The notes under the pieces: model-generated
Databases searched by the model: none
What the model saw: only the letters and a program-made list of their open reading frames with translations
What the model was told of the DNA's origin: nothing
Position numbers and translations under genes: made by a program
Part shown: positions 7,894 to 63,600 of the stretch, piece after piece
Layout of the letters: every line of letters starts with the position of its first letter
Numbering within the stretch: position 1 is the stretch's first letter
IMG/VR virus record: IMGVR_UViG_3300044971_004534
Length of the DNA: 64,000 nt
Source: a virus
Strand: one strand, 5' to 3'

Positions 7894-8142
7894 ATGGAAT
7901 ATAAGTGTAGATTTGAAAGATTGGATAAGATAAAAACAGATGATCTAAAAAAGATCAGCCTGTGTACTGAGTGTCATAGTTTTGATTGTAGTAACCCGAT
8001 ACAGAACGTTACAATAAGCGTTTTTGGTATTAATAAAACTATAAGGGCGTATGTTACTCCTAATAACACCTATGGTGTTCAGGATTGCGAAGGTTTTAGC
8101 TGTCACAGCTCAATAGAGGAAGAAGATGACTCTGAAGATTAA
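7894..8142 (+). CDS. hypothetical small Cys-rich protein
   Basis: 82 aa with CTECHSFDC and DCEGFSCH cysteine/histidine pairs (possible zinc ribbon) and an acidic tail. Confidence 0.45.
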   Translation: MEYKCRFERLDKIKTDDLKKISLCTECHSFDCSNPIQNVTISVFGINKTIRAYVTPNNTYGVQDCEGFSCHSSIEEEDDSED

Positions 8143-46900: not shown

Positions 46901-49900
46901 GGTTATGTTCAGTTTATAAACTTGAGAGAAAACATTGCAAACATGGATACTTGCAAGGGAGTTTATGTTAAACTGACCTCATTTAACAGTCTGTCGTTTG
47001 GTCCTCGTTTCGGAGCGTCTGCTGTTAAGGAAAGTTCTGCATCAGGGTGGACTGTAGCTATTGGATACACTACGTACAATTCTGCACTACAAACATCTTT
47101 GCGTTTAAATTTTTTAAATTTTCCATTAGAAGATGCTATTGAAATAAAGATGCAAGATCCTGTAAGCCCCCTAATTGCTCAAGGCAATGGCGCTGTAATG
47201 CTGTTATATCTTAGTGAAGATATGCAGTCATTTGAGTCAGATGTAAGTGGTCCTATCTTTAATGTGATAGAGGGAACTGGATTTAATTCCAATGCAACTA
47301 CTAAGCCATACTTTGGCTATGACATTGATGCAGATGAAAATCACATTGTTATATCTTCTCCATATGATAGTGGATATTCTGCTTCTGGAGAAAGTTCAAA
47401 TATACTTGAGGGAGGTTCAGTAAGAATATTTGAATTCAACAATCCAATATCTCTTGGCTCAAGAGATGTTAATGTAAATTCTGAATTTAAATTTAATCTT
47501 AATAATTTATCTCAGTACCACCTACCCAGACAGGTTTATAATTTAGGAGCAGGCACTTACAGTGCTCAGTGGACAAAGAAAAAGCTTGGCAAATCAGTAA
47601 AACTGGTTGGAAATAAAGTGCTCGTAAGTTCTTGTGATGATGACTTAAGAAGAGGTCCGTCAACACAGAGCAACTTGTTCGGTAACGTATTTTTGCTAGA
47701 CAAAAATAGTAAAGGCTCTTGGGATATTGTTTCTTCTTCTCATGAAGCTCATAACGGAGACAGATTTGGTCATAAGATTGAAATTTTGCCATTGAATATT
47801 TTGTCAAATGGCAAAGACTTTATAGCTCTTGTTTCATCTCCAGGAATGGTTACATCTGCAGTCCAATTAGAAGATTGCCTGACGTGCAATCCGGCAGATA
47901 CTGACTACTCTTATGGTTCTGGAGTTGTTAAGTCTATTGTTGTATCTGGTGACAAATCTTTTGGTGTTCTTCCATCAAGGATACCAAGTGTTTTGCAGAA
48001 TATAGACAGTGATAATACAAGTACTTATACTTTATCCTCTTCTGCTTTAGGAATAAAGCATGTAGCTCATGATATTAGCAATGGTCCTTTAAATAGCAGA
48101 TATGTGTGGAAGTATTATCCGGCAAGATTGCTTGAAAGATCTGCAATACAGTCTGGGGTTAATGATAATGAAATTCCAAAATTTAGGTTAGCAAAGTTTA
48201 TTAATGATCCATCTCCAACTGGAGAAACTGATTTTGCTTCAACTTATAGTGATGTTGGAGCTTTCAGTATGATATCTGATACTGGCGGTGGAACAGCAGG
48301 TGATATAACAGTAGCAAATCTCCCTATTTATGATAGAGCTAATCTTAATATAAGAGTTATGGAAATGCATCCAAGACCTTATAGAATTGTTGATGCTTCG
48401 ATGAGTTCTTCGTTGGATGAGGCGAGTACTTCGGTAAGTCTGCCAAAACAAATACGCTCTGATTATTTTGATTTTGCAACACCTGCAAAAAATGAACTTC
48501 AAGAAACCATATATTTATATGGTCCAATTTTAAGTCCACAGCAGGGTGCTCAATGGAGCGGCAGTATAAGTCCTTCTAACTCTTTTGGAATTACTCCAGT
48601 GAGGGCTTCGAGATGGCTTATTCCAGTTGCAGATTCTGATGTTAGTAATATATTATACATTAATGGAATAGCAGTTTGGAGCCCAACGGTTTCAAATGTA
48701 GAGTACAATATTGCCGGAGGATATTACTTTAATTCTTCCTCTTTCCTCAGGCCATCTGGTCAGCAGGTTCACACTAACATGACCGGAAACCCTTTGGTAA
48801 AGCCATTTAATGGGACTGTAGACACAAGTAGATGGTGGTCTACTAGGAATTATATTTCTCCTGGGTGCGTTCAACTTCTTGACTCGTCCACTGAGGGACA
48901 TCTAACGGTATGGCCAGCTTTTAATTTTGCTCGTACTTTTACCTCTAGTGGAAACCCTAATCCCCCACCCTTTGGTGGTGCAATACAGGGATTCTTAGAC
49001 ACTAAAAATTTCTATATTGGTAAAGCAGATATCAGGCCAGGTGTGACTTCTGTTGATGCATCACGAATTGATGCTTGCAAAATAGATAAAGCGTATTTTT
49101 GGGGTCTTAAAATTGCAGAGGGCTCTTATAACGTATTTATTAATGCGTACCTAAACGCAACGAGTGTTAATCCCTTTAGAATTCATCAGACAACAAAATA
49201 CCTTGCATGGAGTGGTTGTACTGTTGCTTTGGAGAGAAGTTCTCCGGCTGCAAGCCAATTGGAATACGGTACGTCTTATACTGGCTATGCACCATCTTAT
49301 GAATCTTATGATTTTAATTTAGGTCACATATTAAGTTATCCTCCAATTAATTTCAGATGCACAACTGGAAATGTTGCTCCGAAAAATAGCACCGTTGTTA
49401 ACAATGTTTCTACAATTAGTGCTATTTCTAATGCGCCAAACGGTAGTACGCATGCTCTTTATTTAGATGCAGTTGGCTGGAACTCTTCATTGATGAATGT
49501 GGGAGTTAAAGATATAGTAATACACGGGCATTACAATTATCATGGTTTTAATAAGTCTGCTTCAGAATCTTTACCAGTTGCTGCAATCGCAGATAGAAGA
49601 TCTCAAATAGTAACATTTATTTCTGGTTATGGTTCTAAAATTTCATCAATCAATGGTAGAAATTCAGGTTCATGCTTTTTTGCTCCAAGCATAAAATTTA
49701 CTTGCATTTTAGATTCAGGACTGTCTTCATACAGAAGATGGAAACAAAACTTTGGAGGATTGACAGATTGGAATCACAATGGAGGTGCATATTCAGGTTG
49801 GGGAAAAATTGCAAAAAATCCCACTTTCTTTGCAAACAGCTTTACGAACAATCCAAGTTGGGTAACTGAATCTGGCTTGCCAAATGGTTTTAATGCTAGA

Positions 49901-52900
49901 GTTGCGCCAACAGATACTATGTACATGGTAGATTTGTTTTGGGACTATGATCCTAATGCAACTACTCCAAGTCCTGAAGATTTAAAGACAGCCATATTTA
50001 ATAGTTCTTTCAATAGTACACAAGATATTTATTCTAATTTGCTTTTGCCAGTAAAGGTGTCTGGAAATTTATCCCAATCTCAAGTGAACTTATTTCCATT
50101 AAGGGCTTATCCTCTTAATAGAAATCAAATTAATTTTTCTTCATGTGGTACAACTTGTCCAGCTATTTTGGTGTTCGGAATAGCAGTTAGCGGTTATCCA
50201 GCTACGCAATTTCCTCCCGTAATTGAGCCAACTACTACTTCGCCCTATACTGATACAAGATCTGCACATTTTGGATATTCTTCCAATAATGTTCAGTGCG
50301 CAAACGGAATTTCTGTAAAATATGATAGACAATATACAAATATTGTAGCTTGTAAAACTTTTACAGATGGATTTGGTGTAACTATTGGTGGTGTTGCTGC
50401 AGAGGCTGGAACTCATCTTGCTTCAACAATAACTAGTATTGGTACTAATTGGTGTGGAACTGGAGGAAATACTTCTACTAATGTCGCAACTTATTCATAT
50501 AAATATAAAACTATTCTTTATCCATCTATAACTTCTATAGATTCTCACACTCCTTCTTCTGGATTTAACACCCACAGTACTTATTTTACCGGTGGTGGTC
50601 CATCCCTTTTGCAATGGCATTCTCACTTTGCTCCATCATTCATCGAAACAAATATTGGCAATGGTCCTTTGTCTTTTGGTGCGATTAATGAATTTGCTCC
50701 CTACTACGATGACTTTGCTAATAGTACTACAGGATGGAATACTCCACGTAGTGGTCACAATATTATGTTCTGGGTAAGGCATAAATACAATGCTTCAACT
50801 GTTGCAACTCTCTCGGATGTTTTTCCTGCAAAAATTAATGACTTAGTTGGTAGTTTTTCAGGAAGCATTTATCCTAAATTAAGAAAAGAGTCTGCATTTA
50901 AATACCCATACAAAACAAATATGCTTACCGGGCGCGGCAGGAATGTTCAAATTTCAGCATTGGGTTCAGAACTTCGAAGTATAGGAAGAGACGAGATTGT
51001 TTATCAAAATGAATTTATTTACAGAAAATTATCCTATCATAGGCAAAACAGTTCAGGCACAGTTGTTAACAGTCAATTTTCTCCAGTGCATGAATTCAAC
51101 TCTGTAGAGATTAATTCTTCAGGAACATATACAAATAATCAATCTTTTGTAAATGATATAAGCAGTATTGTCCCTCTCTTGTATTCAGCTAGGTCTATTT
51201 TAGAAAATGATCCTCTCAAGCCGCATATAAGAGAAGAGTATCAGACAGAAACAGTATCAAATGTAAGGTATCGTAGAGCATCTTTGTTTGACAGAGTTAC
51301 ACCTCAAGACTTCTTTACTAATCCAGAAACGCTTGTATGTCTTCCAACATTCAGTATGCCTGACATGCTTGACTTTGCTACCAGTGACAATTCATTTAGT
51401 CATATCTTTGGTATATTGAATAATTTTGCAGACTCTTACGGACCCAATTATCCAGATAGTGCAAATTTAAAGTACATAGGAATGCTCAAAAACACCTTAA
51501 GTACAAACGATAAGAACAATCTAGGTTATAGCTCAAGTTCCCCAACTGCTTCTGCTTTCTGGAAGGCAATAAAAAACGGATTAGCTCACATTATAGATGT
51601 TAATTCTTCTGTAATGTCTCTCAGTAATGGAGAGGACCTATTAACTGTTACCATTTTAGCGTCTTTGAATGGCAATGTATGGACTGGAAGCAATCCAATT
51701 AAACATAGTTTTGGTTGGCAAAATTCTATTTTATCAGAAGAAATATATGGTGGTGGATTAATTTGTGCTGTCATAACGGCTAAAGTAACTAATAATGGTG
51801 GAATTGCTAACGTAAGATCTACATTTGCAAATTCTGCTGCGACCTTATCTAGTTCTAGTGTGAAGGCCAGGGTAAGTGCTGTTCTTGATGGAAATACAGT
51901 TCCAGAAAAGTCATGGTGCAGAATGGGTATTTGGATGCAGCCATTGTTAGGAACAGCTAAGCCTACAAAAGATAACTCTCCATACTACTGGCCAGGAAAT
52001 TTCCCATGGAGTGGGTCAAGCGACATAAAATATCTTGGCATAAATCCAGGAGATCAAGCGGTTAGTCAGACAAAGTTTTTCCATACATCTCCTGGGATGA
52101 TAAAAGTTCCTATTAATAGGTCTTATCTTGCAAAATTAGGCAAACATATTATGTTAAAATATAATACTGGTTCTGAGCAAGATAGATATTTTGCCATCAT
52201 TGGGCCATGTGTATATCATATACAGGATGCATTATCTCTAGACAATGGCCCGCTGTGGTGGGCTAATGAAAGAAAGTCTTCATGTTTTAAAATGCCAAGT
52301 TATTCTTGGGACAGTAGACCTGTCGTGTTCCAAAAATTTGGACTTTCTGTTGCAGAAATCTCGAGTGCATCATCTTATTCTGATTTATTTAAATTCTCTG
52401 CTTATACTGGCCAAGTCCCAAGAATGGTAAAGTCTTTCTTTAACCTTGAATCTTTTACGTCGGATTTTGGAGCAAATAACACTGCCGAGTTTGCGGCCTA
52501 TGGTAGTGTGGGTGGTGGCGCTGGCTCTTTGTTTGCTCCTAATGAGCAATGGTTTGACTACGGCAGTGAAACTTATGGGTTTGCTCCTAGTGGTGCAAAC
52601 GATGCTGTTGCCATACTTGGTGAAGGTATAGGTTTTAATATAAGAGAAGGGAATAAGATTCATGCATTTGTATTCTGGAGAAATGCATTTTATAGAATTA
52701 CTCCTCCTCTAAGTTCTGCTACAGAGTCTCATCCTGTAATAACAGAAATACCAATCAATACAACATATGTTCAAAATGGTGAAACAATAATTATTAAAGA
52801 TCAACTTAAAGCTGCTTATGAACTTCATAGATTAAATGGATTCTTCAATGGAAATACGTCTTTTGTGGTTAGCGGAAATGCTGGCAATGATAACGATAAT

Positions 52901-55747
52901 GCATTTACCTATGTGTTTAAATTCGTATCTAATGGAACGACCGCCAACGGCTTTAGTGGTCCTGGCATGGTTTACGAGGCAAGAGTCGGTGATATAGGTG
53001 CAACTGCAATAAACGATTTGTGCAATCAGGCTTTCAGGTATCAATTATGGATGAGTAGTGATGCAAGTATTTTGGCAATAGGCAATCATAGATGGGACGC
53101 TCAATCTGATCAAATAAGTCCAAACGGCGATCCACTACCTTCGACATTCTATATAGATCTTTATAGAAGAAACGTAACTGGGTCTGGCATTTCATACGTT
53201 AAGCTTTTAGAGCAAGGGTTAAAGCCATCTGATTCTAGTGAAGGTAGGCCGGTCGATGTGTTCTGCTCTTCATTGTGGGGAGTTCAAAGCAGTACAAACG
53301 CTTCTCTCTATGACATATATGTCGCATCTGGAATAGACCCAGATGTTAATGACGCCAATTACTTGGCTCCTACATCTGCTAATTATAGTGCCAGTAACTT
53401 TGAAAACAGAATAGGAAGGGTGACTGTATTTACTGCATCTGTCCCAACCGGAGGACAAGCAAGTAGAAGATCTATTGAGTTAAGCGACATTGTTCCTGCA
53501 ACAGATCCAGCATTCAATGATAACAATAAAGCTTTTGCAAATCTTAATTTCTGGACAATGACTCCAATAAGTGCAAAAAACGGAAGCTGTGGATTGATGT
53601 TCCATCAAAATACTTTAATCGCTTCTTCTCTTGGCTGCCTGATTAAAATGTCTCCCAAGTCTCCCTATCACGGATCTGGATGGCAAATTAGTAAAATTGT
53701 TGGAGCCAATTCTCCTATGCCTTCTATTCCAGTAAAAAGGGCAATTACTCCATATTCTCAATTTGGTTATGTAAATAATAATCCAAATGGTAATTTTGAA
53801 TACGCAATAAATGCAGATATTATGAACATGTCAACTATTGCGGTGCCAACAATTAATTCTTCTGCATCTGCTGGATTTAATAAGCTAGCATCAAAAATAG
53901 CGTTTATAGAGATCGATGTAGACAACAATCCTTATTCAAAGATATTCTCTATATCTAATTATACGTCGATTGTGTCTGGATCTTCTGCAGATGTTGATCA
54001 GTTAGGAGTATTCGATGCAAGTACTGAGCTAAGCAACCCAGTGTGTTATCCTGCCTACACCGCCATAAAGTCTAAGAGAAGCGGCTATTCGGCAGGTCAG
54101 TCTTCTCCAGAAACGCAGATTTACAACCCCAGCATAAAAGCATGGCTGTATGCATATGATTTAGGCAATTCTCTGGGAGATTCGGAATTGCCATACAGCT
54201 CATATGAGTATTCAAAAGATAACGAAGGTCATATACTCGTTAAGCCTCCTGTGCCCGATCTAGAGAAAAAGCAGTTTTATTTTGGTGGTAATGAATTCCT
54301 GACCCTTGATGGAAATAATGTCTATAGAGACTATCATGGACTTATTGGGAATATCAAGGGAACTCTTTTGCAAATGGATTGGCAAGATGTTTCTGGTATA
54401 TTGTGGTGGGGCACTAATGACATATACATCATGAGATCTTACAAATATGATCAGCATTATTCGCCTTCAGCATCAGATATTCTTCTTGAAGAATATGTAC
54501 GCTCAAGAACTTATTATGCAGATGAAAACACGGGTATCACAAGTGTTAATAAAAATGCAATTGTTAAATTTGCTATGCCAAGCAATGCTAATACTATAGT
54601 GCAAAACCCAACTTGTGATGTTAATGATTATATGGGAACTTTAGGATGCGGCTTGACTGGACCAAAAGTCATTACGGTCGCAGCATCCACCAACTATGGT
54701 CTTTACGATGTCCTGCATAATGGAATAACTTCAATAATTCCACTTATGCAGTCAAGAGAAAAATTCGGAAAGCAAAAAACAGTAATTATATTAGATGACT
54801 TCCCTGATCACATGAACAGCCAAATATTTACAGATATTGGTACAAATTATGCAAATATTATGCCGTTCTATAGTTACTCTTCATCGAATACAGTCAATCC
54901 ATACAGGGTATATGCTGAAGATATGTTTATTGACAGCTCTATGCGTTTAATATATAGAAAATCGGACCTCTTGCCATCTATATCAAAGTATCAAAATGGT
55001 TTCTCAATTCCCAATATTAGCGTTAATAACTGTGAGGGACCAATAGTGTTTGCAAGAAAGTCAATATATAGTTCTGCCAATACTAAGTGGAGCTACATGA
55101 TCAAAGACTTGTCTTCTTGCTTTGATCCTCTGTATGGAACAATTTATAATGGCGACAATATTTTACTTACTAGACTTTCTTACATGTATCCCAATTCAGT
55201 TTCGTCTTCTCATCCAGAGGCAGATTGGTATTTTGCTCCAATATCTGAAACTGTGTCAAATGCAGATGTTCCGACATATACTCCATCTATGAGTAAATGC
55301 CTGTGTGTGGGCCTACTTAGAGCTTCTAGTAGAAAGATAGCAAAATGGAAATTAAATTCTTCTTCTGGAGGAAGTTCACTCAGCCTACTTGATATTATAA
55401 CTGTTCAGACTGGAGATCAATCACCAGCCAGAATAAGAACAAGAATAGATACTTCCTCTAGTGGAGCATCAACGATAAAAGACCTTGTATTGTGTGGAAA
55501 AATAAATACTGATATTATAAATGCAGCTCTTAGCAAGTCTGGAGCAACAGATATTCCAAATTTAATGACAAAAATAAAAGACAATTTATATTCAGTAATT
55601 GGCGGTCAAAGCTTTATGGACGCCAACGGATGCATTCATATAGTCGATACAGATTCAGAGGCAAAAATAGATAATACAAAAGAAGAATTTATAAGAGAAT
55701 TTATGAATAAATTTAATGGATTTTATCATGTCATACGAGGCGCATAA
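43952..55747 (+). CDS. giant protein 2 (3931 aa) with poly-Ser linker and FG-GAP-like beta-propeller
   Basis: Uninterrupted 11.8-kb ORF. Ser-rich linker at about 44.62-44.71 kb. Several FG-GAP/integrin-alpha-like blades, for example FGYDISSFGWNGVTYLAVSAP...GRGAVYIF and YFGYDIDADENHIVISSP...GGSVRIFEF. Confidence 0.85.
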   Translation: MIKIRKIIYWHFAVYGGDAETIDPENLPSDSISTLDMGLNEANPIIVNGAPNVRAFSVSTGYEWLIDIFVQDGQTKDLNDENKRTTIRSNNPVASPGFVWFDLAVVELKAVFGNPIVVESLEQLSLVKDDNNDGVRIPVKYMLFGAHKEGETGAQLRNEPDAFFDATNIPNEVSSEGDQGHQEFVEAISSKTFVDEDGVPNSFFINIKHQEEVTKIGCCNIDVSESSSSSSSADSSSSSSEDGASSSSSSSSTDTGSESCPSGLTLRSQPVMHDGNRRVWAVRQTADIHISNNPVYEGNFFADSGVLVRKNYIASELVYADVENVLNGNSSWNSTHWQHAGYISFRENKPYAMGLHQDPVFNKTDLSYSSGNLCAYHAYDDNFELPVTIQSITWDTRGYLWALCSGGAKDATPDSGTTVSGVQSTEGVYALIPGGWKKQPADIIYFGGSNTGNTFEYEDLNSSALVLASLHMRWGCDRSKSKDFLAIVDNDFHIHIKKNANSNINFPEEQNIRNDNGLLLLADNIYAGVEKICVVEAGTTLPYLISYSQLDTDLSSLIATERANNVRYSILACGVDFIVGVSQSSQIKVFVNSSATNVPTQDDADELQSSISTDITDGYSIKKVVCGDSFFAVYLKKTSGESKLYARGYIKDIKIWDGSNYDANFIRPQSWDLSETKPILDVEAFGDYLIIAYAEGLPSASPKSLYYEVATVLDDIPLHNTGSASSAATSKILNYEVLNQLRKIYIDNASNDVDSYITSSNINHLLPSKGLLGYRKFENVNSAYGNLFIHENSEYLHHPYFSQSGSFIPGKMEVKSGMFGYDISSFGWNGVTYLAVSAPTEGPVLSAQNGGVLGQQDGKHGRGAVYIFKRYENGFKLIQKIQHSDTSVIAFGKQVCLYATKNASDEDAMALICSYRGNTSDYTRIYYWNSVEELFEWSEMTDSFIQVNQLTLSPSTSDIKIIEIKRISDHNISVTSFVNNAIEGYVQFINLRENIANMDTCKGVYVKLTSFNSLSFGPRFGASAVKESSASGWTVAIGYTTYNSALQTSLRLNFLNFPLEDAIEIKMQDPVSPLIAQGNGAVMLLYLSEDMQSFESDVSGPIFNVIEGTGFNSNATTKPYFGYDIDADENHIVISSPYDSGYSASGESSNILEGGSVRIFEFNNPISLGSRDVNVNSEFKFNLNNLSQYHLPRQVYNLGAGTYSAQWTKKKLGKSVKLVGNKVLVSSCDDDLRRGPSTQSNLFGNVFLLDKNSKGSWDIVSSSHEAHNGDRFGHKIEILPLNILSNGKDFIALVSSPGMVTSAVQLEDCLTCNPADTDYSYGSGVVKSIVVSGDKSFGVLPSRIPSVLQNIDSDNTSTYTLSSSALGIKHVAHDISNGPLNSRYVWKYYPARLLERSAIQSGVNDNEIPKFRLAKFINDPSPTGETDFASTYSDVGAFSMISDTGGGTAGDITVANLPIYDRANLNIRVMEMHPRPYRIVDASMSSSLDEASTSVSLPKQIRSDYFDFATPAKNELQETIYLYGPILSPQQGAQWSGSISPSNSFGITPVRASRWLIPVADSDVSNILYINGIAVWSPTVSNVEYNIAGGYYFNSSSFLRPSGQQVHTNMTGNPLVKPFNGTVDTSRWWSTRNYISPGCVQLLDSSTEGHLTVWPAFNFARTFTSSGNPNPPPFGGAIQGFLDTKNFYIGKADIRPGVTSVDASRIDACKIDKAYFWGLKIAEGSYNVFINAYLNATSVNPFRIHQTTKYLAWSGCTVALERSSPAASQLEYGTSYTGYAPSYESYDFNLGHILSYPPINFRCTTGNVAPKNSTVVNNVSTISAISNAPNGSTHALYLDAVGWNSSLMNVGVKDIVIHGHYNYHGFNKSASESLPVAAIADRRSQIVTFISGYGSKISSINGRNSGSCFFAPSIKFTCILDSGLSSYRRWKQNFGGLTDWNHNGGAYSGWGKIAKNPTFFANSFTNNPSWVTESGLPNGFNARVAPTDTMYMVDLFWDYDPNATTPSPEDLKTAIFNSSFNSTQDIYSNLLLPVKVSGNLSQSQVNLFPLRAYPLNRNQINFSSCGTTCPAILVFGIAVSGYPATQFPPVIEPTTTSPYTDTRSAHFGYSSNNVQCANGISVKYDRQYTNIVACKTFTDGFGVTIGGVAAEAGTHLASTITSIGTNWCGTGGNTSTNVATYSYKYKTILYPSITSIDSHTPSSGFNTHSTYFTGGGPSLLQWHSHFAPSFIETNIGNGPLSFGAINEFAPYYDDFANSTTGWNTPRSGHNIMFWVRHKYNASTVATLSDVFPAKINDLVGSFSGSIYPKLRKESAFKYPYKTNMLTGRGRNVQISALGSELRSIGRDEIVYQNEFIYRKLSYHRQNSSGTVVNSQFSPVHEFNSVEINSSGTYTNNQSFVNDISSIVPLLYSARSILENDPLKPHIREEYQTETVSNVRYRRASLFDRVTPQDFFTNPETLVCLPTFSMPDMLDFATSDNSFSHIFGILNNFADSYGPNYPDSANLKYIGMLKNTLSTNDKNNLGYSSSSPTASAFWKAIKNGLAHIIDVNSSVMSLSNGEDLLTVTILASLNGNVWTGSNPIKHSFGWQNSILSEEIYGGGLICAVITAKVTNNGGIANVRSTFANSAATLSSSSVKARVSAVLDGNTVPEKSWCRMGIWMQPLLGTAKPTKDNSPYYWPGNFPWSGSSDIKYLGINPGDQAVSQTKFFHTSPGMIKVPINRSYLAKLGKHIMLKYNTGSEQDRYFAIIGPCVYHIQDALSLDNGPLWWANERKSSCFKMPSYSWDSRPVVFQKFGLSVAEISSASSYSDLFKFSAYTGQVPRMVKSFFNLESFTSDFGANNTAEFAAYGSVGGGAGSLFAPNEQWFDYGSETYGFAPSGANDAVAILGEGIGFNIREGNKIHAFVFWRNAFYRITPPLSSATESHPVITEIPINTTYVQNGETIIIKDQLKAAYELHRLNGFFNGNTSFVVSGNAGNDNDNAFTYVFKFVSNGTTANGFSGPGMVYEARVGDIGATAINDLCNQAFRYQLWMSSDASILAIGNHRWDAQSDQISPNGDPLPSTFYIDLYRRNVTGSGISYVKLLEQGLKPSDSSEGRPVDVFCSSLWGVQSSTNASLYDIYVASGIDPDVNDANYLAPTSANYSASNFENRIGRVTVFTASVPTGGQASRRSIELSDIVPATDPAFNDNNKAFANLNFWTMTPISAKNGSCGLMFHQNTLIASSLGCLIKMSPKSPYHGSGWQISKIVGANSPMPSIPVKRAITPYSQFGYVNNNPNGNFEYAINADIMNMSTIAVPTINSSASAGFNKLASKIAFIEIDVDNNPYSKIFSISNYTSIVSGSSADVDQLGVFDASTELSNPVCYPAYTAIKSKRSGYSAGQSSPETQIYNPSIKAWLYAYDLGNSLGDSELPYSSYEYSKDNEGHILVKPPVPDLEKKQFYFGGNEFLTLDGNNVYRDYHGLIGNIKGTLLQMDWQDVSGILWWGTNDIYIMRSYKYDQHYSPSASDILLEEYVRSRTYYADENTGITSVNKNAIVKFAMPSNANTIVQNPTCDVNDYMGTLGCGLTGPKVITVAASTNYGLYDVLHNGITSIIPLMQSREKFGKQKTVIILDDFPDHMNSQIFTDIGTNYANIMPFYSYSSSNTVNPYRVYAEDMFIDSSMRLIYRKSDLLPSISKYQNGFSIPNISVNNCEGPIVFARKSIYSSANTKWSYMIKDLSSCFDPLYGTIYNGDNILLTRLSYMYPNSVSSSHPEADWYFAPISETVSNADVPTYTPSMSKCLCVGLLRASSRKIAKWKLNSSSGGSSLSLLDIITVQTGDQSPARIRTRIDTSSSGASTIKDLVLCGKINTDIINAALSKSGATDIPNLMTKIKDNLYSVIGGQSFMDANGCIHIVDTDSEAKIDNTKEEFIREFMNKFNGFYHVIRGA
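46380..47860 (+). other. FG-GAP (integrin-alpha-like) beta-propeller region within giant protein 2
   Basis: About 6 consecutive repeats of the form [F/L]G-x5-10-hydrophobic strand-(S/G)AP/SSP ... G-x-V-[YFR]-[IL]-F. Confidence 0.6.
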
Positions 55748-58700
55748 TGATTAGGAACCCATTTGAAACCACGCAATATGCGTCTAATTTCTTAAAAGAA
55801 AACATTATACTTGATTCTTCTGGAATAGGACTGACAGGTATAGATGTTTTAATGGAATTTCTTGTTAATCAAACAAGAATACGTCAAGAAGCTATAAGAA
55901 TAGGCTATATATCCAACAATCCATCTAGAATAGATGGAGAAGATTATAGCCAAGTAAGTTTGCTTGGCTTGTCTTTTGATACCCCTCAAAATATATATGA
56001 TGGCTCTTTACTTATAGTGAGCGCAATAAAGCAGATGTTTTCTGGGCATCCATCTGAACTTTATGAAAAACTTGCTTATAGACCAACTATTATACAATAT
56101 CAAGATCCAGACGATGGAGTGTATGTTAGTAGAACTGGTGGATTTTTTCATAAAATTGTGGACCCTAGTTCTGATGTTGAGCAGCCAAATGATGACTATT
56201 TTGAATTCTTTGACGATCCAGAATTTGTTGATGGTCAATATCTTACAAGTGGAGACATAGACAGATTTAATAGTCCGCCATCTTTTACTGATCCTTCAAA
56301 TCCTTACGCTACATTAAATGAATATTTGAAAGATCAAGTTAAATGGGTTAACAGCACAATCGCTATATTAAATAAGTTAAAATATATCCATAAAAAATTA
56401 GTTTTTACTTATCCATTTGCTGGAATATCTTTTGGAAGTGGCTGCTCATTTGCAAAAAATATTAGTTCTACCACTACTCCAGATTCGAACGGAAAGCCTG
56501 TAGAAATTATACTTGACATGTCTGAGGTGGTAGCTTCTTGTGTTGACGGTACTGATTCCTATGGGTATCTTTGCATTAGGTGGCGTAGTGTCGGCAACGG
56601 TTCACGTTTTATTGTCATGCCCACCGTGGGTGCGACAGCTGCACAGACAGCGGCTCTTCGTCAGCCAATATGGGGCGCATTGACAGTTAACCCAGCTTCA
56701 GATCAGCCTTATGTTCATAGTAATTCTGGTAATCAAGGATATTTGAACAGTGCTAACTACATTTCTTATGCTTCTTCTGAAGGTATATTGAAGACTTGGG
56801 ACCCAGAAACTAATACTGTTTTCGATAGGCCAGTTTCTCCTATTCTGAGATCTGGTTGTCAAAATGCTCCGTGCTGTACAACAAACGATAATACCAATAA
56901 CATTCCATTTAGAGAAGGTGGCAATGACGTAAACTCTGATTTTGCATGTATAAATATTAATAATACTTTCTTCTCTACTGGAACTGGTTCTGACTGGGAT
57001 AATAAAATAAGAATAGTGATATTTTCTGGATGCCAGAGTGCTAGCTCCAATACTTCCTGGGAGCTTGAGCTTAATTGTCTTGGCTGCACAGATTGCAATG
57101 TGACTTTGACTGAATGCGGAGGCATTCCTTCATCAAGTTCAAGTTCTGAAGACATTAATTTTGGCATATTTATTCTAGATGATAGTAATAAAATAGGAAA
57201 AATAGATGTAATAACCGGCAATTTATCTGGTAGAATTCTTACTGTCAAAGATGATGCAGGCAATCCACTGGAAGATAATCTGCATGACATTGATTTTGAT
57301 ACTGACGGCAACCTGTATGGTCTTGCGCAATCTGGAATTTTATACGTTATCAGCAAGTCAACAGGTAAAGCAACAGTTGTGGGGAATACTGGACTAACAA
57401 ATACAAACGGTCTTGGATTTGGTCAAGACGGCAGACTTTACACTATAAATAATACAACTCTTTATTATTTAAACAAGCAAAATGCTGGTACGAATCAAGT
57501 GGGAAGTATTGGCTATACTGGAAGCGGTGATATATGTACTTCAAGATCTGGCCCCAATAGACTAATAGTTTCTGCAAAAAATGGAAATAATAATTTTATC
57601 CTTGAATTATCTGTTGGTGCAAATAGCGTAACATCTCAAGTAAAACTTAGTGGATCAAGAGTTGTTCCAAGAGTTTTTGGTTTAGCTAGACCACTTTCTC
57701 TTTCTGCAGGCCCACTTGCTGTTGCTGATCAGAAAATATATGTTTTTAATAGATTTGATACTTCAGATGCTTCTATGACTGTTGTTTCCGATTTTTCTCA
57801 GTCTGGTCTTTGCTGTGCGGTTGGCGCAGCTTACTGGAACGGAAATTTTGAAAATGACGAAGGTGGCGGTGGAGGCGGCAACTTTGATTTTCCACAGTGT
57901 GACAATATACCAGTATGGACTGTAGGTAGAGATAATGTTCTTAAGCAGGTTAATATTAAAAACGGGGACTCTCTTAAGTCTTATACACTGCAGGGTGCGA
58001 CATTTGATAGCTTCTATGGATGTCCAACCGATTTAGCGGTAAATGATTCTGGCGACATATATCTAATAGATAACTCTAATCTTTATAGAGTGCTACTGCC
58101 CTTTGTTGACGCTCCTGTGCAAGACGTTGCTACCGCTATTCTAATTGGACGTTTATTAGAAGGTAGTTCCGCAGTAGCTTTTGCCGGTTTAACGTTTGGC
58201 AAAGACGGGATCTTATATGGATGTATGGTTGAAGGGGTTACAAACCCTATTTCTACGATTCCAGCATATCCACTATTCAAAATAGATCCTCAAACTGCAG
58301 AATGCACTGCTGTTTGCACAGACATGGGTGTTGGTTGTCAGGGTGATGTTGCTCCATGGACCGACGCGAATGGTGTAAACTGGTTTTATTTAGTTGGCGC
58401 TAATGAGGATCATAACCAGATATACAGGTTTAGATATGGTGGAGAGGGAGACTGCGGTGAACTTGAGCTTATTTCAGACCCAGACACTTTCCAGTATGGA
58501 ACAGACGTTTTTAGCATTTCCAATGCTCGTGATAATAAAATTTATGTTATAGCTGGAACCCAGGTTCTTAAGATAGACCCGATCACTAATACCATTACGG
58601 AAACTGGAGTGAGTATTAGTGGATCTCATAGTCATGGTTCTGGTTGGCTTCCTAATGATGTGCTTGCAGACGGTTGCTCTGACAACTCCTCTAGCTCAAG

Positions 58701-61700
58701 TTCATCTGGTGAAAATTCATCTTCAAGCTCTTCTTCAAGTGAAGATATTGCGCCATGTCCTTGCGTGCCCCAGTCTTCAAGTAGTTCAAGTTCAAGTTCA
58801 AGTTCAAGCAGTGAGATTTCTTCATCCTCTTCTAGTTCAAGCTCCTCAAGTTCAAGTTCTTCTAGTGCTTCATGCCCAGATTGTGGAGATAGTCCGTCTA
58901 TTATTATAGACAGGGATGATTGGCTAAGTGGTATAGTTAATTGCCATAAAGTTGGATTTGATTCTGGATCAGTCATAAGGATAAAATGGTTTCAAGTTTG
59001 TTCTCTTTGCTGCACTTGTCCTACAGAAAGACAGTTCACAAGAGAATGTGAAATCGAAATAAGCATATTTGATATTGATTGTCAGAGTTGGTCTGCAATT
59101 TGGCAATATCTTATTAGTACAGGACAAGTAGAAGAAATTAGATGCAGCGTAGATGGTGGTTCTTGCAGATTTTATTATAGAGTAGATTTTGACAGAGATC
59201 CAGATTTGCCAAATATATTTTATTGGAGATTTACAGAAAACTTCCAAACATTTTTCCCAGATTATCCTGCCAATTGCGAATGTCCTCCATGTGATCCAGA
59301 TCCATCATGCTGTGACTCGTCTTGCTTTGGCTTAGGCACCATGATAAAAATGGCAGATGGTAGTGAGAAAAGAATTGAAGACATTAAGGAAGGTGATATT
59401 CTTTTAGCAGCTTATTTCAACGAGTTTGGAGTTGCCAGAAATCCTACTTTAGAGCAAATAAACAGTGGTTGGACTTTAAGCGACTCTAGATATATCAGGT
59501 TCGCTGAAACCAGAGTAAAGAGCATAAAGGTTGGATCTGAGCTTTCTATATATAAATTTTCTGATTCATTAAAGCTTACTTTTGAACATCCTGTATTTAT
59601 AATGGATGTAGACGGCACTTTAAAATTTAGAAGTGCTGTGTATATGCAAGATGGCGTTTATGGATATGACGTAAATCTTGAAATGATTCCGATGAGATAT
59701 TTTGAAGAAATAAATAGAAAATCAATCACTATTACTCTCACAACTGAACCTTTCCATTGCATATTTGCAGGAAATATATTAGTGCACACTGGTTCTTCAG
59801 GTAATTACACAAATACAGTTGGTTTTGGTGAAATAGGCATTAATATAAATACTGATATTTATACAGATCCAGTCTCTCCAGCCACATCTGTTATTGACGA
59901 TGGCTCTACTGGTTACAGTTTTATTTCAGACGGATTAGGCACAGTAAATCCAGGGACTGGTGGTCCAATTGACGACAGTGGAGTAATTGTAGACAGCCCT
60001 TATGTTTGTCAATTTGCTTGCAGATGTTTAAGCGGAAATTGCAGCACAGTTAGTTTCGTAAGTTCCTGGAAGCTTGGAACGCCTATACAGTTCTGCGCAG
60101 ATCCTACGGCGTGCTGTAATAATGGAAGTTGTACAAGAGGTAATGCAGACTGTAAAGACGTATCTGACAACTCCGTATTGATTGAAAGAACTATAGTCGC
60201 CAATAGTTGTGCTGATGCTTGTAGAAAATGTGCTGCTCTTGCTACGCAAAGTGTTGATTTTGTAAACAGCCCTTCTTTTGAATGCGCAAACGCTTCACTG
60301 ATATGTACATCATCGGGTTCATCTTCATCTTCCGTTTCTGCTTCGTCTTCAAGTAGTAGCTCCGAAATAACTGGTGAAGAGGTTGTTTTGTGGCTGAATC
60401 CTCCAATGGCTGCAGTTGACGTTGGCAATGGACTTATGTCAGTTTCTGGTGCTCCTACTGCTCATTTATTAAGTAACGGCAATGATGGGCAAATGTTGGC
60501 TCAAAGATTTGCTGTACCAGACAATTGTCAATGGCGTGTTTATAAATTTAGAATGTGGGGCGGTAGCGAATACGTGGACGAGCCTGTTGGTGGAGCGGGT
60601 GGCAACAGCTTGTCAAGTAATATACAAGCTATAAGAATAAACATCTTTAAGTTCCAGGCATCTTCTGGTAATTGGGAGTTGTATAATTCTACTACTGGTT
60701 ATTTAAAAATGGCTTCAGGTTTGATTTTAAATGATCAGGGAAGCACTATGGGCATATTTGGATCTAAGCATTTTCAAATTGACATGGAGTTTAATCCATC
60801 TGTTTCTACTATTTTGGACAGTGGGGATTATTTGCTTGGTATTGGTGGCGTGCATTCTTTGACTGGCCCTACCGCTCCAGAAAAACTTCTGTGGACATAT
60901 AGTGAGTTTGGGACTGCAACCAGCCCTGGGCAATACTCGACTACCAATTTAAACTGGGGAAATTGGGTTGATAGCAATCAGAACACAAGTTTAGCAGCTG
61001 CTCTCATAGGAATAAGAAGTTCAACATGCGTAGTGTCAAGCTCTTCAAGCTCTTCCGGCTTGGGATCTCAATCTTCTAGTTCTTCTTCTGATTTGTCGAG
61101 TTCATCTTCTAGTTCTTCCTCCGTAGGTGCTTGTACGCAATCTTTTGGTCATTGGAACAATAGCAGTGGAACTCCAGTATACTCTGAAATTATTGATTTA
61201 TCTGGATTTGAAGTACAAACCGATACATCTGGAGAGTTTATTGACGTGTGTGTTGAATATATGACTGGCTCAGATATTTCTGACAGAATTCTAATAATAG
61301 CAACAAAAGACGATGATGAGGTTAGTACTGATGAATTCTTAAGAAATGGGGATATAGACTATTCTTACTACGCAAATATTGATAATTACATAAATGGTCA
61401 GGAGAGTAGGTTCTCTATTTCCTCAGGACATCCATTAATCGCCTACAACGGCTCCTCTTTTGCGCCACCATTGCGATCATTGATATTTGATAGCGGTTGT
61501 GCTTTAACTGGAGACACAAATTCCACAGTTACTTCTATAAGGCTTAGAAAAAATTCTGTGTCATTAGACCCAACTGATCCAATGTATAAAAAGTTCCGAT
61601 TGGTTGTATTCGGAGTTTGTGATGTAGCTTTTGCTCCAAATAGTATTACAAATTGGTGGATTACATTTAAGTGTGATATTGCAAATTGCGTTGTAACTTC

Positions 61701-63600
61701 ATCAAGCAGTTCATCTTCGTCTTCTTCTAGTTCTGTTCTGTCTAGCTCTAGTTCATCCAGTAGCTCTTCAGTCTGCACTAAAATATGGTCTGGACCAGGA
61801 TGTCCAGATGTCAATAATGATGGATTTGTAGATTCTCTTGATCTTGGACTTTTAAATGGTATCTGGGGTGCTGTTGATTATGACAATAGAATATCCGTAG
61901 CGTCAGATTTAAATGGAGATGGCTTTATAGACGGGCAAGATATGATTATTCTATTAAGTAACGGTGGATGTATAGAATGTCCTAATTTTCAATGGCCCAT
62001 TTCTTCATCTAGTTCCAGTAGTTCCAGTAGTTCCAGTAGTTCCAGTAGTTCCAGTAGTTCCAGTTCTTCTATACCCTCCGGTCCTCCGCTGCCGTATTAT
62101 GGCTCAAACAAATTTGGTAGATTCATGGTAGATGCAAGAGATGGTAAAAACATAGTTGACATTATGTATATAGGACAAGATGCTAACTATTGGGTTCCTG
62201 CCTTAAATAGAGGTTTTAATTTACTTAATGTAAAAGCTTTTGGTACACCGTTTGCTCCCGCCTTGATGTCTACATCATTTGATGTTGTAAGTAATGTTGC
62301 TCATCTTTCTGCGGATTGGGATGCTGGATCAAATGCTAGATCAAGTGAAGTTGGCACTCTAAAAATTTTCAAAGGTGGTAGTCTTTTTGCCGGAGACGCG
62401 ATACATGAAGCCATGCATACATCTGTTACTCCATATGGAAAAGCTTTGGAGTGGGGGTATGTTCCAAAGATAGATGGTGAGTACTTCATAGAGTATGCTT
62501 CAGGAATGTATATATCAAATGGACCACCAAGCTTGGGCATCCCTATAGATAGCGTTTCAAAACTGGAGTACAGAGTTTTAAGAGTATCTGGTTATACAGG
62601 AAGTTACTCCATGTCTGTGGACACTTATGATGCAAGTAGAAATTATGCTGTATTGCCAGTAGTCAGTAATCAATCAAGTGACCTGATATGGGTAAGTGAC
62701 AGTTTGGAATTTATGTATAATCCATTAGTTCATGGAGTAGAAGGCTTGCGTTTTGCATGTACTGGAAGTGAAAATTTAGGACTCACTTCTGGAATAAGCG
62801 GAGACTTTGGAGTTGGATTGCATAGTTTGCACAAGAATGAAATAAGCGGTCTCGCGATTACTCCATTCCACACGTATGGTCAGGCAACATTTGAGTCATT
62901 AAATTCCGATCTTAATAGACCTGAAACCATTTTTACTTTAGAAACTTATCTAAACGCGATAAATGAAAGATCTGTGTCTGCTTACAGTAAGCTGCCAGGA
63001 GCAGAAGGCGGCTCAGGAAGAATGGTATTCTTCATACAAGCCAATTCGTCTTCTGAATCAACTATGATTAATGACATCATATCGATTAAAGATAAAATTA
63101 CTGCTACATGTTTAGGTTTAGGTTTTGATGAAAACAACTTTACATTCGCCATTATGATACCAGCTCCTATAAGTGAATTCGACTTAGAGTTTGTCAGTCT
63201 TCGTCAAAGCATTGCTGATGCAATACTTGCTCAAAGTAGCTCAATCGCAAATATATCTTTCATAAACATTCCAGCTATTTTCTCTTATACGCAAATGATA
63301 GAAAATGGCTGGGCAACAATTGCGATCACGCCAGTCGAAGAAAATCCAACAAGTCAATTTGCTTTACTGACAGGAGGACAGTGCTGTGAGACTTATACTA
63401 ATTGCTGCCCGAGCGTGCCAGTTTGCACAGGCGGTACTTGCACTTATGTAAGATGCTGGAATTGCTCAGAAGACGCTCCTGGCTTCGGCGTGTGCGGAGT
63501 GGTCATGTCAACAGATCCAGACACAGGAGGAAGTTCTTCAGATACATCTGGTGGAGGCAGTAGCAGCTCTTCTAGTAGTGAAAAAAATCCATTTATTTAA
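55747..63600 (+). CDS. giant protein 3 (2617 aa): beta-propellers, poly-Ser linkers, Hint domain, Cys-rich modules, dockerin, C-terminal domain
   Basis: Uninterrupted 7.9-kb ORF with a TAATG junction to giant protein 2. Domain evidence is listed separately. Confidence 0.85.
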   Translation: MIRNPFETTQYASNFLKENIILDSSGIGLTGIDVLMEFLVNQTRIRQEAIRIGYISNNPSRIDGEDYSQVSLLGLSFDTPQNIYDGSLLIVSAIKQMFSGHPSELYEKLAYRPTIIQYQDPDDGVYVSRTGGFFHKIVDPSSDVEQPNDDYFEFFDDPEFVDGQYLTSGDIDRFNSPPSFTDPSNPYATLNEYLKDQVKWVNSTIAILNKLKYIHKKLVFTYPFAGISFGSGCSFAKNISSTTTPDSNGKPVEIILDMSEVVASCVDGTDSYGYLCIRWRSVGNGSRFIVMPTVGATAAQTAALRQPIWGALTVNPASDQPYVHSNSGNQGYLNSANYISYASSEGILKTWDPETNTVFDRPVSPILRSGCQNAPCCTTNDNTNNIPFREGGNDVNSDFACININNTFFSTGTGSDWDNKIRIVIFSGCQSASSNTSWELELNCLGCTDCNVTLTECGGIPSSSSSSEDINFGIFILDDSNKIGKIDVITGNLSGRILTVKDDAGNPLEDNLHDIDFDTDGNLYGLAQSGILYVISKSTGKATVVGNTGLTNTNGLGFGQDGRLYTINNTTLYYLNKQNAGTNQVGSIGYTGSGDICTSRSGPNRLIVSAKNGNNNFILELSVGANSVTSQVKLSGSRVVPRVFGLARPLSLSAGPLAVADQKIYVFNRFDTSDASMTVVSDFSQSGLCCAVGAAYWNGNFENDEGGGGGGNFDFPQCDNIPVWTVGRDNVLKQVNIKNGDSLKSYTLQGATFDSFYGCPTDLAVNDSGDIYLIDNSNLYRVLLPFVDAPVQDVATAILIGRLLEGSSAVAFAGLTFGKDGILYGCMVEGVTNPISTIPAYPLFKIDPQTAECTAVCTDMGVGCQGDVAPWTDANGVNWFYLVGANEDHNQIYRFRYGGEGDCGELELISDPDTFQYGTDVFSISNARDNKIYVIAGTQVLKIDPITNTITETGVSISGSHSHGSGWLPNDVLADGCSDNSSSSSSSGENSSSSSSSSEDIAPCPCVPQSSSSSSSSSSSSSEISSSSSSSSSSSSSSSSASCPDCGDSPSIIIDRDDWLSGIVNCHKVGFDSGSVIRIKWFQVCSLCCTCPTERQFTRECEIEISIFDIDCQSWSAIWQYLISTGQVEEIRCSVDGGSCRFYYRVDFDRDPDLPNIFYWRFTENFQTFFPDYPANCECPPCDPDPSCCDSSCFGLGTMIKMADGSEKRIEDIKEGDILLAAYFNEFGVARNPTLEQINSGWTLSDSRYIRFAETRVKSIKVGSELSIYKFSDSLKLTFEHPVFIMDVDGTLKFRSAVYMQDGVYGYDVNLEMIPMRYFEEINRKSITITLTTEPFHCIFAGNILVHTGSSGNYTNTVGFGEIGININTDIYTDPVSPATSVIDDGSTGYSFISDGLGTVNPGTGGPIDDSGVIVDSPYVCQFACRCLSGNCSTVSFVSSWKLGTPIQFCADPTACCNNGSCTRGNADCKDVSDNSVLIERTIVANSCADACRKCAALATQSVDFVNSPSFECANASLICTSSGSSSSSVSASSSSSSSEITGEEVVLWLNPPMAAVDVGNGLMSVSGAPTAHLLSNGNDGQMLAQRFAVPDNCQWRVYKFRMWGGSEYVDEPVGGAGGNSLSSNIQAIRINIFKFQASSGNWELYNSTTGYLKMASGLILNDQGSTMGIFGSKHFQIDMEFNPSVSTILDSGDYLLGIGGVHSLTGPTAPEKLLWTYSEFGTATSPGQYSTTNLNWGNWVDSNQNTSLAAALIGIRSSTCVVSSSSSSSGLGSQSSSSSSDLSSSSSSSSSVGACTQSFGHWNNSSGTPVYSEIIDLSGFEVQTDTSGEFIDVCVEYMTGSDISDRILIIATKDDDEVSTDEFLRNGDIDYSYYANIDNYINGQESRFSISSGHPLIAYNGSSFAPPLRSLIFDSGCALTGDTNSTVTSIRLRKNSVSLDPTDPMYKKFRLVVFGVCDVAFAPNSITNWWITFKCDIANCVVTSSSSSSSSSSSSVLSSSSSSSSSSVCTKIWSGPGCPDVNNDGFVDSLDLGLLNGIWGAVDYDNRISVASDLNGDGFIDGQDMIILLSNGGCIECPNFQWPISSSSSSSSSSSSSSSSSSSSSSSIPSGPPLPYYGSNKFGRFMVDARDGKNIVDIMYIGQDANYWVPALNRGFNLLNVKAFGTPFAPALMSTSFDVVSNVAHLSADWDAGSNARSSEVGTLKIFKGGSLFAGDAIHEAMHTSVTPYGKALEWGYVPKIDGEYFIEYASGMYISNGPPSLGIPIDSVSKLEYRVLRVSGYTGSYSMSVDTYDASRNYAVLPVVSNQSSDLIWVSDSLEFMYNPLVHGVEGLRFACTGSENLGLTSGISGDFGVGLHSLHKNEISGLAITPFHTYGQATFESLNSDLNRPETIFTLETYLNAINERSVSAYSKLPGAEGGSGRMVFFIQANSSSESTMINDIISIKDKITATCLGLGFDENNFTFAIMIPAPISEFDLEFVSLRQSIADAILAQSSSIANISFINIPAIFSYTQMIENGWATIAITPVEENPTSQFALLTGGQCCETYTNCCPSVPVCTGGTCTYVRCWNCSEDAPGFGVCGVVMSTDPDTGGSSSDTSGGGSSSSSSSEKNPFI
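57150..58650 (+). other. two NHL/YVTN-like beta-propeller regions in giant protein 3
   Basis: Repeated blades such as DIDFDTDGNLYGLAQSGILYVISKSTGK, GLGFGQDGRLYTINNTTLYYLN, DLAVNDSGDIYLIDNSNLYRV, GLTFGKDGILYGC and NKIYVIAGTQVLKIDPITN. They are separated by a Gly run (EGGGGGGN). Confidence 0.55.
58783..58806 (+). repeat. (AGTTCA)x4 hexanucleotide tandem repeat inside a poly-Ser tract
   Basis: Perfect agttca agttca agttca agttca within the 58.68-58.87 kb Ser-coding region. Confidence 0.85.
59323..59790 (+). other. Hint (Hedgehog/intein-like, BIL-type) domain within giant protein 3
   Basis: Block A: CFGLGTMIKMADGSEKRIEDIKEGDILL. Block B TxxH: LKLTFEHPVF. Blocks F/G: FHCIFAGNILVHT. The domain ends HT followed by Gly, not the HN+Cys/Ser/Thr expected of splicing inteins. 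Confidence 0.75.
61801..61970 (+). other. dockerin (type I-like) module in giant protein 3
   Basis: Two 22-residue Ca-binding loop-helix segments, DVNNDGFVDSLDLGLLNGIWGA and DLNGDGFIDGQDMIILLSNGG, separated by a 10-residue linker. Poly-Ser linkers flank both sides. Confidence 0.75.
62011..62064 (+). repeat. perfect (AGTTCCAGT)x6 tandem repeat encoding poly-Ser
   Basis: Six identical 9-nt units counted directly in the sequence. The repeat is in frame. Confidence 0.95.

Follow-up and report, generated by a model that had tools for sequence, protein, structure and literature searches.

A 64,000-nucleotide stretch of DNA from an uncultured huge phage (IMG/VR virus record IMGVR_UViG_3300044971_004534; the whole stretch is called the window below) contains a single uninterrupted open reading frame (ORF) at positions 55747 to 63600 of the plus strand, which encodes giant protein 3 (gp3; 2,617 amino acids). 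Here, we report an analysis of the Hint (intein/Hedgehog-like) domain carried in the middle of gp3, which is probably a catalytically competent, splicing-incompetent Hint of the bacterial intein-like (BIL)/pretoxin-HINT kind, active in N-terminal autocleavage.

The domain occupies positions 59323 to 59790 (plus strand; 156 codons, in frame within gp3, from CFGLGTMIKMADGSEKRIEDIKEGDILL through FAGNILVHT), corresponding to residues Cys1193 to Thr1348 (156 amino acids), and is a mini-Hint from which the endonuclease insert is absent (phmmer, alignment, AlphaFold2, Foldseek, and profile comparison). Its block A (CFGLGTMIKMADGSEKRIEDIKEGDILL; 59323 to 59406, plus strand) opens with Cys1193 (Cys1), the predicted nucleophile, and the bond between Ser1192 and Cys1193 is the predicted scissile bond. 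Block B (TFEH; 59578 to 59589, plus strand) holds Thr1278 and His1281, and blocks F and G (TTEPFHCIFAGNILVHT; 59740 to 59790, plus strand) keep the penultimate His1347 and end in Thr1348 in place of the terminal Asn. The +1 residue is Gly1349 (GSSGNY...), with which a conserved 21-residue post-Hint segment begins (GSSGNYTNTVGFGEIGININT; 59791 to 59853, plus strand). Ahead of the domain, a Cys-rich segment (NCECPPCDPDPSCCDSS; 59272 to 59322, plus strand) abuts Cys1 and places a Cys at −4, giving a CxxxC1 motif. Translation bore out every sequence statement on the domain in a preliminary description of this DNA (Cys1, TxxH, FAGNILVH, Thr for Asn, and Gly at +1). A motif scan found no second Hint domain in the window, and there was no other full-length profile match in the three giant proteins that it encodes. 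A recent foreign insertion of the Hint was considered and rejected, because its GC content (0.342) matches the window mean (0.353) and the higher GC content of its flanks is due to linkers rich in Ser, Gly, and Cys.

A word-seeded homology search with the Hint region gave no matches, so an exhaustive search was needed; it was made with phmmer over 1.84 billion representatives and yielded 272 proteins with E values of ≤1e-3 (29 at ≤1e-10; best, 1e-31), which puts the match well outside the range of chance. An independent profile, built from 24 distant family members with gp3 and its close relatives left out, scored gp3 at 112.9 bits over residues 1188 to 1348. An alignment of 36 domains that are 22 to 40% identical to gp3 (alignment A1) was used for AlphaFold2, and the resulting model had a predicted local distance difference test (pLDDT) score of 94 and a predicted template modeling (pTM) score of 0.89. 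When the model was compared with the PDB in Foldseek, BIL domains, inteins, Hedgehog, and Vint were matched with a probability of 1.0 (53 matches at E ≤ 1e-3). The top matches were Tetrahymena BUBL BIL2 (6y75 and 6tmm) and the Clostridium thermocellum BIL (2lwy), with E values of about 4e-8, target-normalized template modeling (TM) scores of 0.72 to 0.82, and sequence identities of 17 to 22%; mini-inteins, Hedgehog (1at0 and 6tyy), and Vint ranked after them. By sequence, too, 2lwy was the top PDB match.

A check with curated hidden Markov models (HMMs) would by itself look negative, because all matches of gp3 lie below cut-off: Hom_end_hint was matched at an E value of 1e-3 over the first 28 residues only (19.6 to 20.4 bits versus 32.1), Hint (PF01079) was matched at 0.05, PT-HINT (PF07591) had no match at E ≤ 1 in the Pfam scan, and scans against NCBIfam and PHROGs yielded nothing useful for the Hint. 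Scanned singly, the 36 members of A1 matched Hom_end_hint (23 members), Intein_splicing (21), PT-HINT (16), Hint_2 (13), Hint (11), and Vint (5), with PT-HINT giving the strongest Pfam match among these relatives (best, 5e-17). In the HMM search that the preliminary description had proposed, gp3 itself thus stays below cut-off; its homologs match models of the Hint clan, and gp3 matches the profile of those homologs. For annotation, the lesson is that curated Hint HMMs overlook the gp3 lineage. The phmmer, independent-profile, AlphaFold2, and Foldseek results and the Pfam matches of family members settle the Hint fold and the superfamily membership of the domain, as had been proposed from the letters alone.

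Conservation of the catalytic residues was counted in a census of 185 full-length mini-Hint domains (118 proteins out of the best 150 matches) aligned to the profile. Cys1 was present in 183 of 183 domains, the block B Thr/Ser in 176 of 182, the block B His in 173 of 182, and the penultimate His in 173 of 181. The terminal Asn was likewise found in 173 of 181, and Thr1348 of gp3 sits in that column; a Cys, Ser, or Thr at +1 was found in only 20 of 179. The invariant columns of A1 are solely Cys1, the block B His, and the penultimate His. The eight domains without the terminal Asn (four with Val, three with Asp, and one with Ser; proteins P0001, P0005, P0007, P0013, P0027, P0044, P0057, and P0098) all fall in the closest subfamily of gp3, in which the +1 residue is Gly, Ala, or Asp, never Cys, Ser, or Thr, and Cys1 and both His residues are always present. 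Because of this distribution, Thr1348 and Gly1349 belong to a lineage trait in which the residues used in ligation and C-terminal cleavage can vary, whereas those that start the reaction are kept constant. By the established intein mechanism (PMC7765530), the gp3 Hint is ruled out for canonical splicing as well as for C-terminal cleavage that depends on Asn, because Thr cannot cyclize and Gly has no side-chain nucleophile; both residues recur in an ortholog. This agrees with the earlier proposals that canonical splicing should be impossible and that the domain is of the non-splicing BIL/Hedgehog type rather than a canonical intein, since the first-step residues are conserved, the splicing residues are absent, and the fold matches point the same way.

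The ortholog (2,671 amino acids, collinear with gp3) is encoded on IMG/VR UViG_3300042326_002445 (223.6 kb) and also on a 48-kb contig; both contigs are identical across the 21.4 kb retrieved. It is 64% identical to gp3 overall, and synonymous sites are saturated (proportion of synonymous differences [pS], 0.65 to 0.79), for which reason selection was measured by the proportion of nonsynonymous differences (pN) and amino acid identity in place of dN/dS. The Hint is the best-conserved segment of gp3 (83% identity; lowest pN, 0.104), followed by the N-terminal domain (79%; pN, 0.14), while all remaining segments are 52 to 67% identical (pN, 0.22 to 0.33). The two proteins agree exactly in block A, TFEHP, LVHTGSS, the HT/G junction, and the Cys pattern ahead of Cys1, and they share 17 of the 21 post-Hint residues (81%). 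Its retained HT/G junction and its rank as the best-conserved part of gp3 mark the Hint as a selected module under strong purifying selection rather than a decaying intein. The Hint is placed between Ser/Cys-rich linkers, outside any conserved catalytic site, and a module that stands after it in gp3 (residues 1816 to 1981) stands before it in P0001. Module status, linker setting, and the lack of an endonuclease insert are BIL-like properties rather than intein-like ones, in the contrast drawn in a review (PMC7765530).

From these residues, we infer cleavage, its timing, and its purpose as follows. In the folded domain, Cys1193 would attack the carbonyl of Ser1192, helped by Thr1278 and His1281, and the N-S acyl shift would give a thioester at Ser1192. 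Because the terminal residue is Thr, not Asn, and the +1 residue is Gly, this thioester would be neither transesterified to a +1 nucleophile nor relieved by succinimide-driven C-terminal cleavage and would be resolved by water or by a small thiol or amine. The predicted outcome is a single cut of gp3 into residues 1 to 1192 and the Hint plus residues 1349 to 2617; in close relatives with short tails, the same reaction would strip the C-terminal Hint and tail off a large N-terminal product, as in Hedgehog. Most plausibly, the cut would serve to part or free, after translation, two halves whose synthesis and whose folding or targeting require a single chain. A Cys at −4 is found in gp3, the ortholog, and 9 of the 12 closest subfamily members, and a disulfide between Cys(−4) and Cys1 could gate the reaction; the CxxxC1 motif recalls the disulfide "redox trap" known in some inteins. 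According to the account of Amitai 2003 and Dassa 2004 given in PMC7765530, BIL domains cut themselves at the N- or C-terminal end, and the flanks are not ligated. Judged by its sequence, the gp3 Hint would be best filed as a phage-borne addition to this known class of non-splicing, autoprocessing Hint domains, not as a new mechanism.

Several points weigh against autocleavage of gp3. The protein reaches the threshold of no curated Pfam Hint model; the penultimate His1347, which in inteins normally helps Asn cyclization, is retained though the Asn is gone, and the conserved residues could accordingly serve structure over catalysis; the canonical block F Asp is not evident in A1 when read by eye; and neither half of gp3 has a function assignable by Pfam, PHROGs, PDB sequence searches, or a model of its N-terminal domain. 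Were the fold silent, that is, a rigid structural or interaction module like the Hint-like AXH module, gp3 would stay one chain. The missing terminal Asn and +1 nucleophile and the weak AXH matches of gp3 and 13 of the 36 A1 members would fit such a module, and strong conservation suits any folded functional module, but a silent fold would not account for the restriction of the invariant columns to Cys1 and the two catalytic His residues or for the presence of Cys1 in all 183 domains aligned at that column. To our knowledge, AXH is without Cys1 and the two His residues, which counts against a silent fold, and we regard such a fold as unlikely. Active chemistry with another outcome would be a Hedgehog- or BUBL-like transfer, in which the thioester at residue 1192 is taken by a Lys or the N terminus of a phage protein, a glycan, or a lipid and the N-terminal part is coupled. 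The best fold match, Tetrahymena BUBL BIL2, is reported to conjugate a ubiquitin-like domain; the 21 conserved post-Hint residues are a possible acceptor-recognition region, and a C-terminal tail motif is common to the subfamily. Hedgehog cholesterol transfer provides the chemical precedent (PMC7765530). Transfer nevertheless seems distinctly improbable: neither an acceptor nor an adduct-recognition domain or partner gene could be identified, the fold can account for the conserved flank, BIL domains hydrolyze by default and hydrolysis is also the simpler outcome, and the virion or surface location that transfer needs is unsupported. Covalent attachment of part of gp3 to a second molecule, raised in the preliminary description, is pure speculation. 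Its fullest form, a Hint acting as a built-in ligase that hands the Ser1192 thioester to a phage or host-envelope nucleophile and so fixes the 1,192-residue part, perhaps gated by Cys(−4) and Cys1, and that extends to the Hint-ending tail-module proteins of other phages, is a distant prospect.

The pretoxin-HINT logic, by which the C-terminal half would be an effector freed from an N-terminal delivery or anchoring part, draws on the PT-HINT matches among the A1 members and on a polymorphic-toxin-like layout, with a constant N-terminal region of 460 amino acids and variable downstream modules (P0185, for instance, has an FGE-sulfatase domain). For gp3 it is very doubtful, however. The Hint would stay fused to the "effector," because the cut falls at its N terminus and no C-terminal cleavage is possible; the 1,269 post-Hint residues contain no recognizable toxin, and most close relatives have only 31 to 52 low-complexity residues behind the Hint; there is no evident immunity gene, the downstream 122-amino-acid ORF being without a family; and gp3 itself has no PF07591 match. 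A true intein in decay, its endonuclease and splicing residues lost and the remainder drifting as a selfish element, would account for the missing splicing residues, and many other phmmer matches are real inteins with inserts (multi-stretch matches). Yet a non-splicing intein is normally lost or disables its host protein, whereas this Hint is the most conserved segment between orthologs with saturated synonymous sites, shares the composition of its genome, and lies in a linker rather than a conserved active site, and Cys1 and both His residues persist in twelve relatives among which the terminal residue varies; decay is thus highly improbable. There is hardly any likelihood of non-canonical splicing or C-terminal cleavage, whether through a downstream Asn in GSSGNYTNT or by aminolysis as in the C. 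thermocellum BIL. The study behind 2lwy reportedly described the ligation of flanks by a BIL without a +1 nucleophile, and NYTNT is conserved in the ortholog. The same ability is ascribed to BILs in the account of Dassa 2004 given by PMC7765530. Such mechanisms still require the terminal Asn to free the C-terminal flank, though, the 185-domain alignment sets Thr1348 squarely in the Asn column, and conservation of the downstream Asn residues does not extend to P0001 or other members of the subfamily.

Among known systems, N-terminal autocleavage by the gp3 Hint would have its nearest counterpart in BIL domains (2lwy, 6y75, and 6tmm), which are closest in fold and in PDB sequence and with which it shares the mini-Hint size, Cys1, TxxH, and the lack of an endonuclease and of a +1 nucleophile. 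BIL hosts, like gp3, are variable, repeat- or linker-rich, non-conserved proteins, and the activity expected of both is autocleavage, with splicing not obligatory, a prediction that for gp3 comes from its residues. BIL hosts are bacteria, while that of the gp3 Hint is a huge phage, and A-type BILs end in His-Asn, while the gp3 Hint ends in His-Thr (173 of 181 relatives have His-Asn). B-type BILs combine the N-terminal motifs of inteins with another C-terminal motif and cleave at the N terminus. Block G of gp3 is intein-like save for the last residue, and its comparison with A- and B-type BILs was by motif reading. Pretoxin HINT domains (PF07591) of polymorphic toxin, CDI, Rhs, and MafB proteins share with the gp3 family a conserved N-terminal part, variable C-terminal modules, and a proposed autoproteolysis, but the gp3 Hint is mid-protein with 1,269 residues behind it, without the Asn needed for freeing C-terminal cargo, and no PF07591 match, toxin, or immunity gene was found. 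The Hog domain of Hedgehog (1at0 and 6tyy) has the same fold, Cys1, and TxxH and undergoes only N-terminal cleavage with no splicing, as would be expected for gp3; most close relatives of gp3 are Hedgehog-like also in carrying the Hint near the C terminus, where it would cut itself off a large N-terminal product. The Hedgehog fold match is weaker (E value, about 1e-4), gp3 has the penultimate His of inteins and BILs, and a sterol- or adduct-recognition region was not recognized in gp3 by eye, no profile search having been made for it. Class 1 mini-inteins (Ssp DnaB, Mtu RecA, gp41-1, and Npu DnaE) resemble it in fold, in blocks A and B, and in the penultimate His, but gp3 has no terminal Asn, Gln, or Asp that could cyclize, no Cys, Ser, or Thr at +1, and no conserved insertion site in a conserved host protein. 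No intein-free allele of gp3 with the same flanks is known; the Hint-free P0185 differs in architecture and is not an empty allele. A functional analogy is offered by Peptidase S74, the intramolecular chaperone and autopeptidase of phage tail fibers and spikes, a C-terminal domain that removes itself and matures long fiber proteins of low complexity (PMC7824862), although its fold and chemistry (Ser-Lys dyad) are unrelated and it has no sequence or structure similarity to the gp3 Hint.

Members of the same Hint family occur in deposited jumbo phages, cultured or assembled, where tblastn found proteins of the NCTB/Erwinia type at E values of 1e-5 to 2e-15. In 26 Erwinia Alexandravirus records and Yersinia phage fHe-Yen9-02 (e.g., YP_010300551.1), the Hint stands at the C terminus of a collagen-like "virion structural protein" in the tail-fiber module, and the Erwinia protein ends in ...VGDVLVHN/TDIVAKAEKT (the slash marks the Hint end). 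In Erwinia phage pEa_SNUABM_2, the protein (locus L001, 4975 to 6417) has HN/T plus 10 residues, which would in theory allow it to splice or to be cut at each end. Phage NCTB (LT598654) has three Hint-ending tail-module proteins (BN7874_132, _135, and _136; locus L003, 5224 to 6744, 6744 to 7205, and 8569 to 12483), one of which, at 153 amino acids, is almost Hint alone. These proteins resemble gp3 in Hint family, phage origin, fiber-like or repeat-rich fusions, Cys1, TxxH, and the penultimate His. Their Hints are extremely C-terminal, end in His-Asn with 1 to 11 residues after (the Erwinia +1 residue is Thr), and lie in tail-fiber modules, whereas the gp3 Hint is internal, ends in His-Thr, and lies beside replication genes. 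In BFVD, the best fold matches (TM scores, 0.80 to 0.86) were entries of the size of the NCTB proteins, together with proteins of uncultured Caudovirales that combine a Hint with FN3 or PASTA domains, and 46 of the 185 census domains end within 12 residues of the protein C terminus.

Hint domains fused to phage fiber-like proteins are therefore common and already labeled in databases, as "putative phage tail protein, contains intein domain" by the NCTB depositors and as [quoted passage not shown] For this reason, the claim of novelty in the preliminary description, that such maturation had not been described for phage structural proteins, has to be softened: it was overstated in view of the GenBank and UniProt labels and of autoproteolytic HINT release being the accepted model for polymorphic toxins (PMC3239186), and it holds insofar as no paper analyzing Hint domains in phage structural proteins was found in literature that largely excludes subscription journals. 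What is described for phages (CBB, phiCbK, Sciku, and Staphylococcus phages) are ordinary inteins in terminase, helicase, and RNR genes.

If gp3 does cleave as predicted, some giant multidomain proteins of huge phages would be synthesized as a single chain that a built-in, single-turnover Hint then cuts, a maturation route different from the prohead protease and the S74 chaperone-autopeptidase; if the ligase reading were true, phage morphogenesis would include a Hedgehog-like covalent assembly step. The chemistry is expected, and the biological role of Hint domains in giant and fiber proteins of phages is the new question. Cleavage in the Hint of a cultured phage could open it in general form, as the same family ends many fiber-like and tail-module proteins. 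A natural Hint with an N-terminal thioester but no C-terminal cleavage would, if real, also be the design wanted for expressed-protein ligation.

The part of gp3 before the predicted scissile bond (residues 1 to 1192; 55747 to 59322, plus strand) consists of a conserved N-terminal domain, propeller-like repeats, Ser-rich linkers, and the Cys-rich segment. The N-terminal domain of about 460 amino acids (MIRNPF..QY...; 55747 to 57150, plus strand) also occurs in proteins with other C-terminal modules: it is 48% identical to that of P0001 and 28% identical to those of P0019 and P0057, all of which bear a Hint, while P0185 combines it with an FGE-sulfatase-like domain and no Hint. AlphaFold2 gave no usable fold for it (7 sequences; pLDDT, 61), and its Foldseek matches were meaningless (TM score, about 0.17). 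The preliminary description had called this part a propeller-bearing one of 1,190 residues; the length is essentially right (1,192), and the propeller comes down to sub-threshold Pfam matches (Tachylectin, 27.1 bits versus a cut-off of 29.8; NHL; and DUF5074). In the part after the Hint (residues 1349 to 2617, 1,269 residues; 59791 to 63597, plus strand), no toxin or enzyme family was recognized by Pfam or PDB sequence searches, the latter giving only weak, dockerin-like matches. Residues 2021 to 2069 (61807 to 61953, plus strand) are a dockerin type I-like calcium-binding repeat pair (PF00404, 26.4 bits versus a cut-off of 22.9), which is unusual in a phage protein and suggests cohesin-type docking to a partner. 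The gp3 family as a whole is a constant head with shuffled cargo modules (propeller-like, Cys-rich, Ser linkers, dockerin-like, and sometimes Hint).

Behind a Ser run, gp3 ends in EKNPFI (63580 to 63597, plus strand), a K-x-hydrophobic tail that is common to its closest Hint-bearing relatives. In these proteins, a Ser/Gly run is followed by EKNPFI, GKFTFS, SKMLVNG, SKIIVS, SKILIP, or SKNLVI and the stop codon, or by GKQLVV...; besides gp3, the tail is borne by P0001, P0003, P0005, P0007, P0008, P0013, P0019, P0027, P0057, and P0098, and the Hint-free P0185 is without it. It may act as a signal for targeting or assembly that goes together with the Hint. Across the subfamily, the Hint is followed by a weak, recurring x[ST]G[IFL]x[ILMV] motif. 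In P0002, P0011, P0038, and P0097, up to seven complete mini-Hints form head-to-tail arrays with junctions of the form ...VHNK(G)(G)C...

The gp3 gene is the last of three consecutive giant ORFs (38115 to 43955, 43952 to 55747, and 55747 to 63600; 1,946, 3,931, and 2,617 amino acids) with overlapping stop and start codons; the three proteins have no PHROG match and no detectable similarity to one another. The gene for P0185 overlaps a preceding giant ORF by 4 nucleotides, comparable to the second and third giant genes here; at locus L004, a giant ORF abuts (4-nucleotide overlap) a gene with a gp3-like N-terminal domain, and a giant ORF also lies upstream of the gp3 ortholog (loci L007 and L008). 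The window encodes a phage-type DNA polymerase, DnaB-like and other helicases, a UvsX-like recombinase, a clamp loader, and a dNMP kinase. Upstream of gp3, the ORFs include those for the dNMP kinase, clamp loader, a sigma-like protein, helicases, DNA polymerase, and UvsX; downstream are those for a MoxR-type AAA protein (AAA_3), a DUF2201_N protein, dCMP deaminase, a sigma factor, and SET. No structural gene was found among the annotated neighbors, which are of replication and nucleotide-metabolism type, and gp3 has no PHROG or structural homology, so nothing supports the virion or surface location that the preliminary description had considered. The same protein is found on a JGI contig of 161 kb and on others of 0.2 to 1 Mb. 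No close relative was found among 50,697 deposited phage genomes, and a single-sequence scan of GTDB species representatives found generic inteins only (Saccharibacteria and Thermoplasmatales contigs) and no close relative.

The genes for the MoxR-type AAA_3 ATPase and the DUF2201_N protein lie directly downstream of the giant genes on the minus strand (locus L002, 18300 to 21208), and similarly placed minus-strand ORFs of 405 and 540 amino acids, matched by size and position alone, are found at the ortholog locus L008; the pair might act as chaperones for the giant proteins. The phage DNA polymerase (phrog_405) is encoded by two slightly overlapping ORFs (8126 to 9424 and 9417 to 11369), which match the N- and C-terminal parts of the profile.

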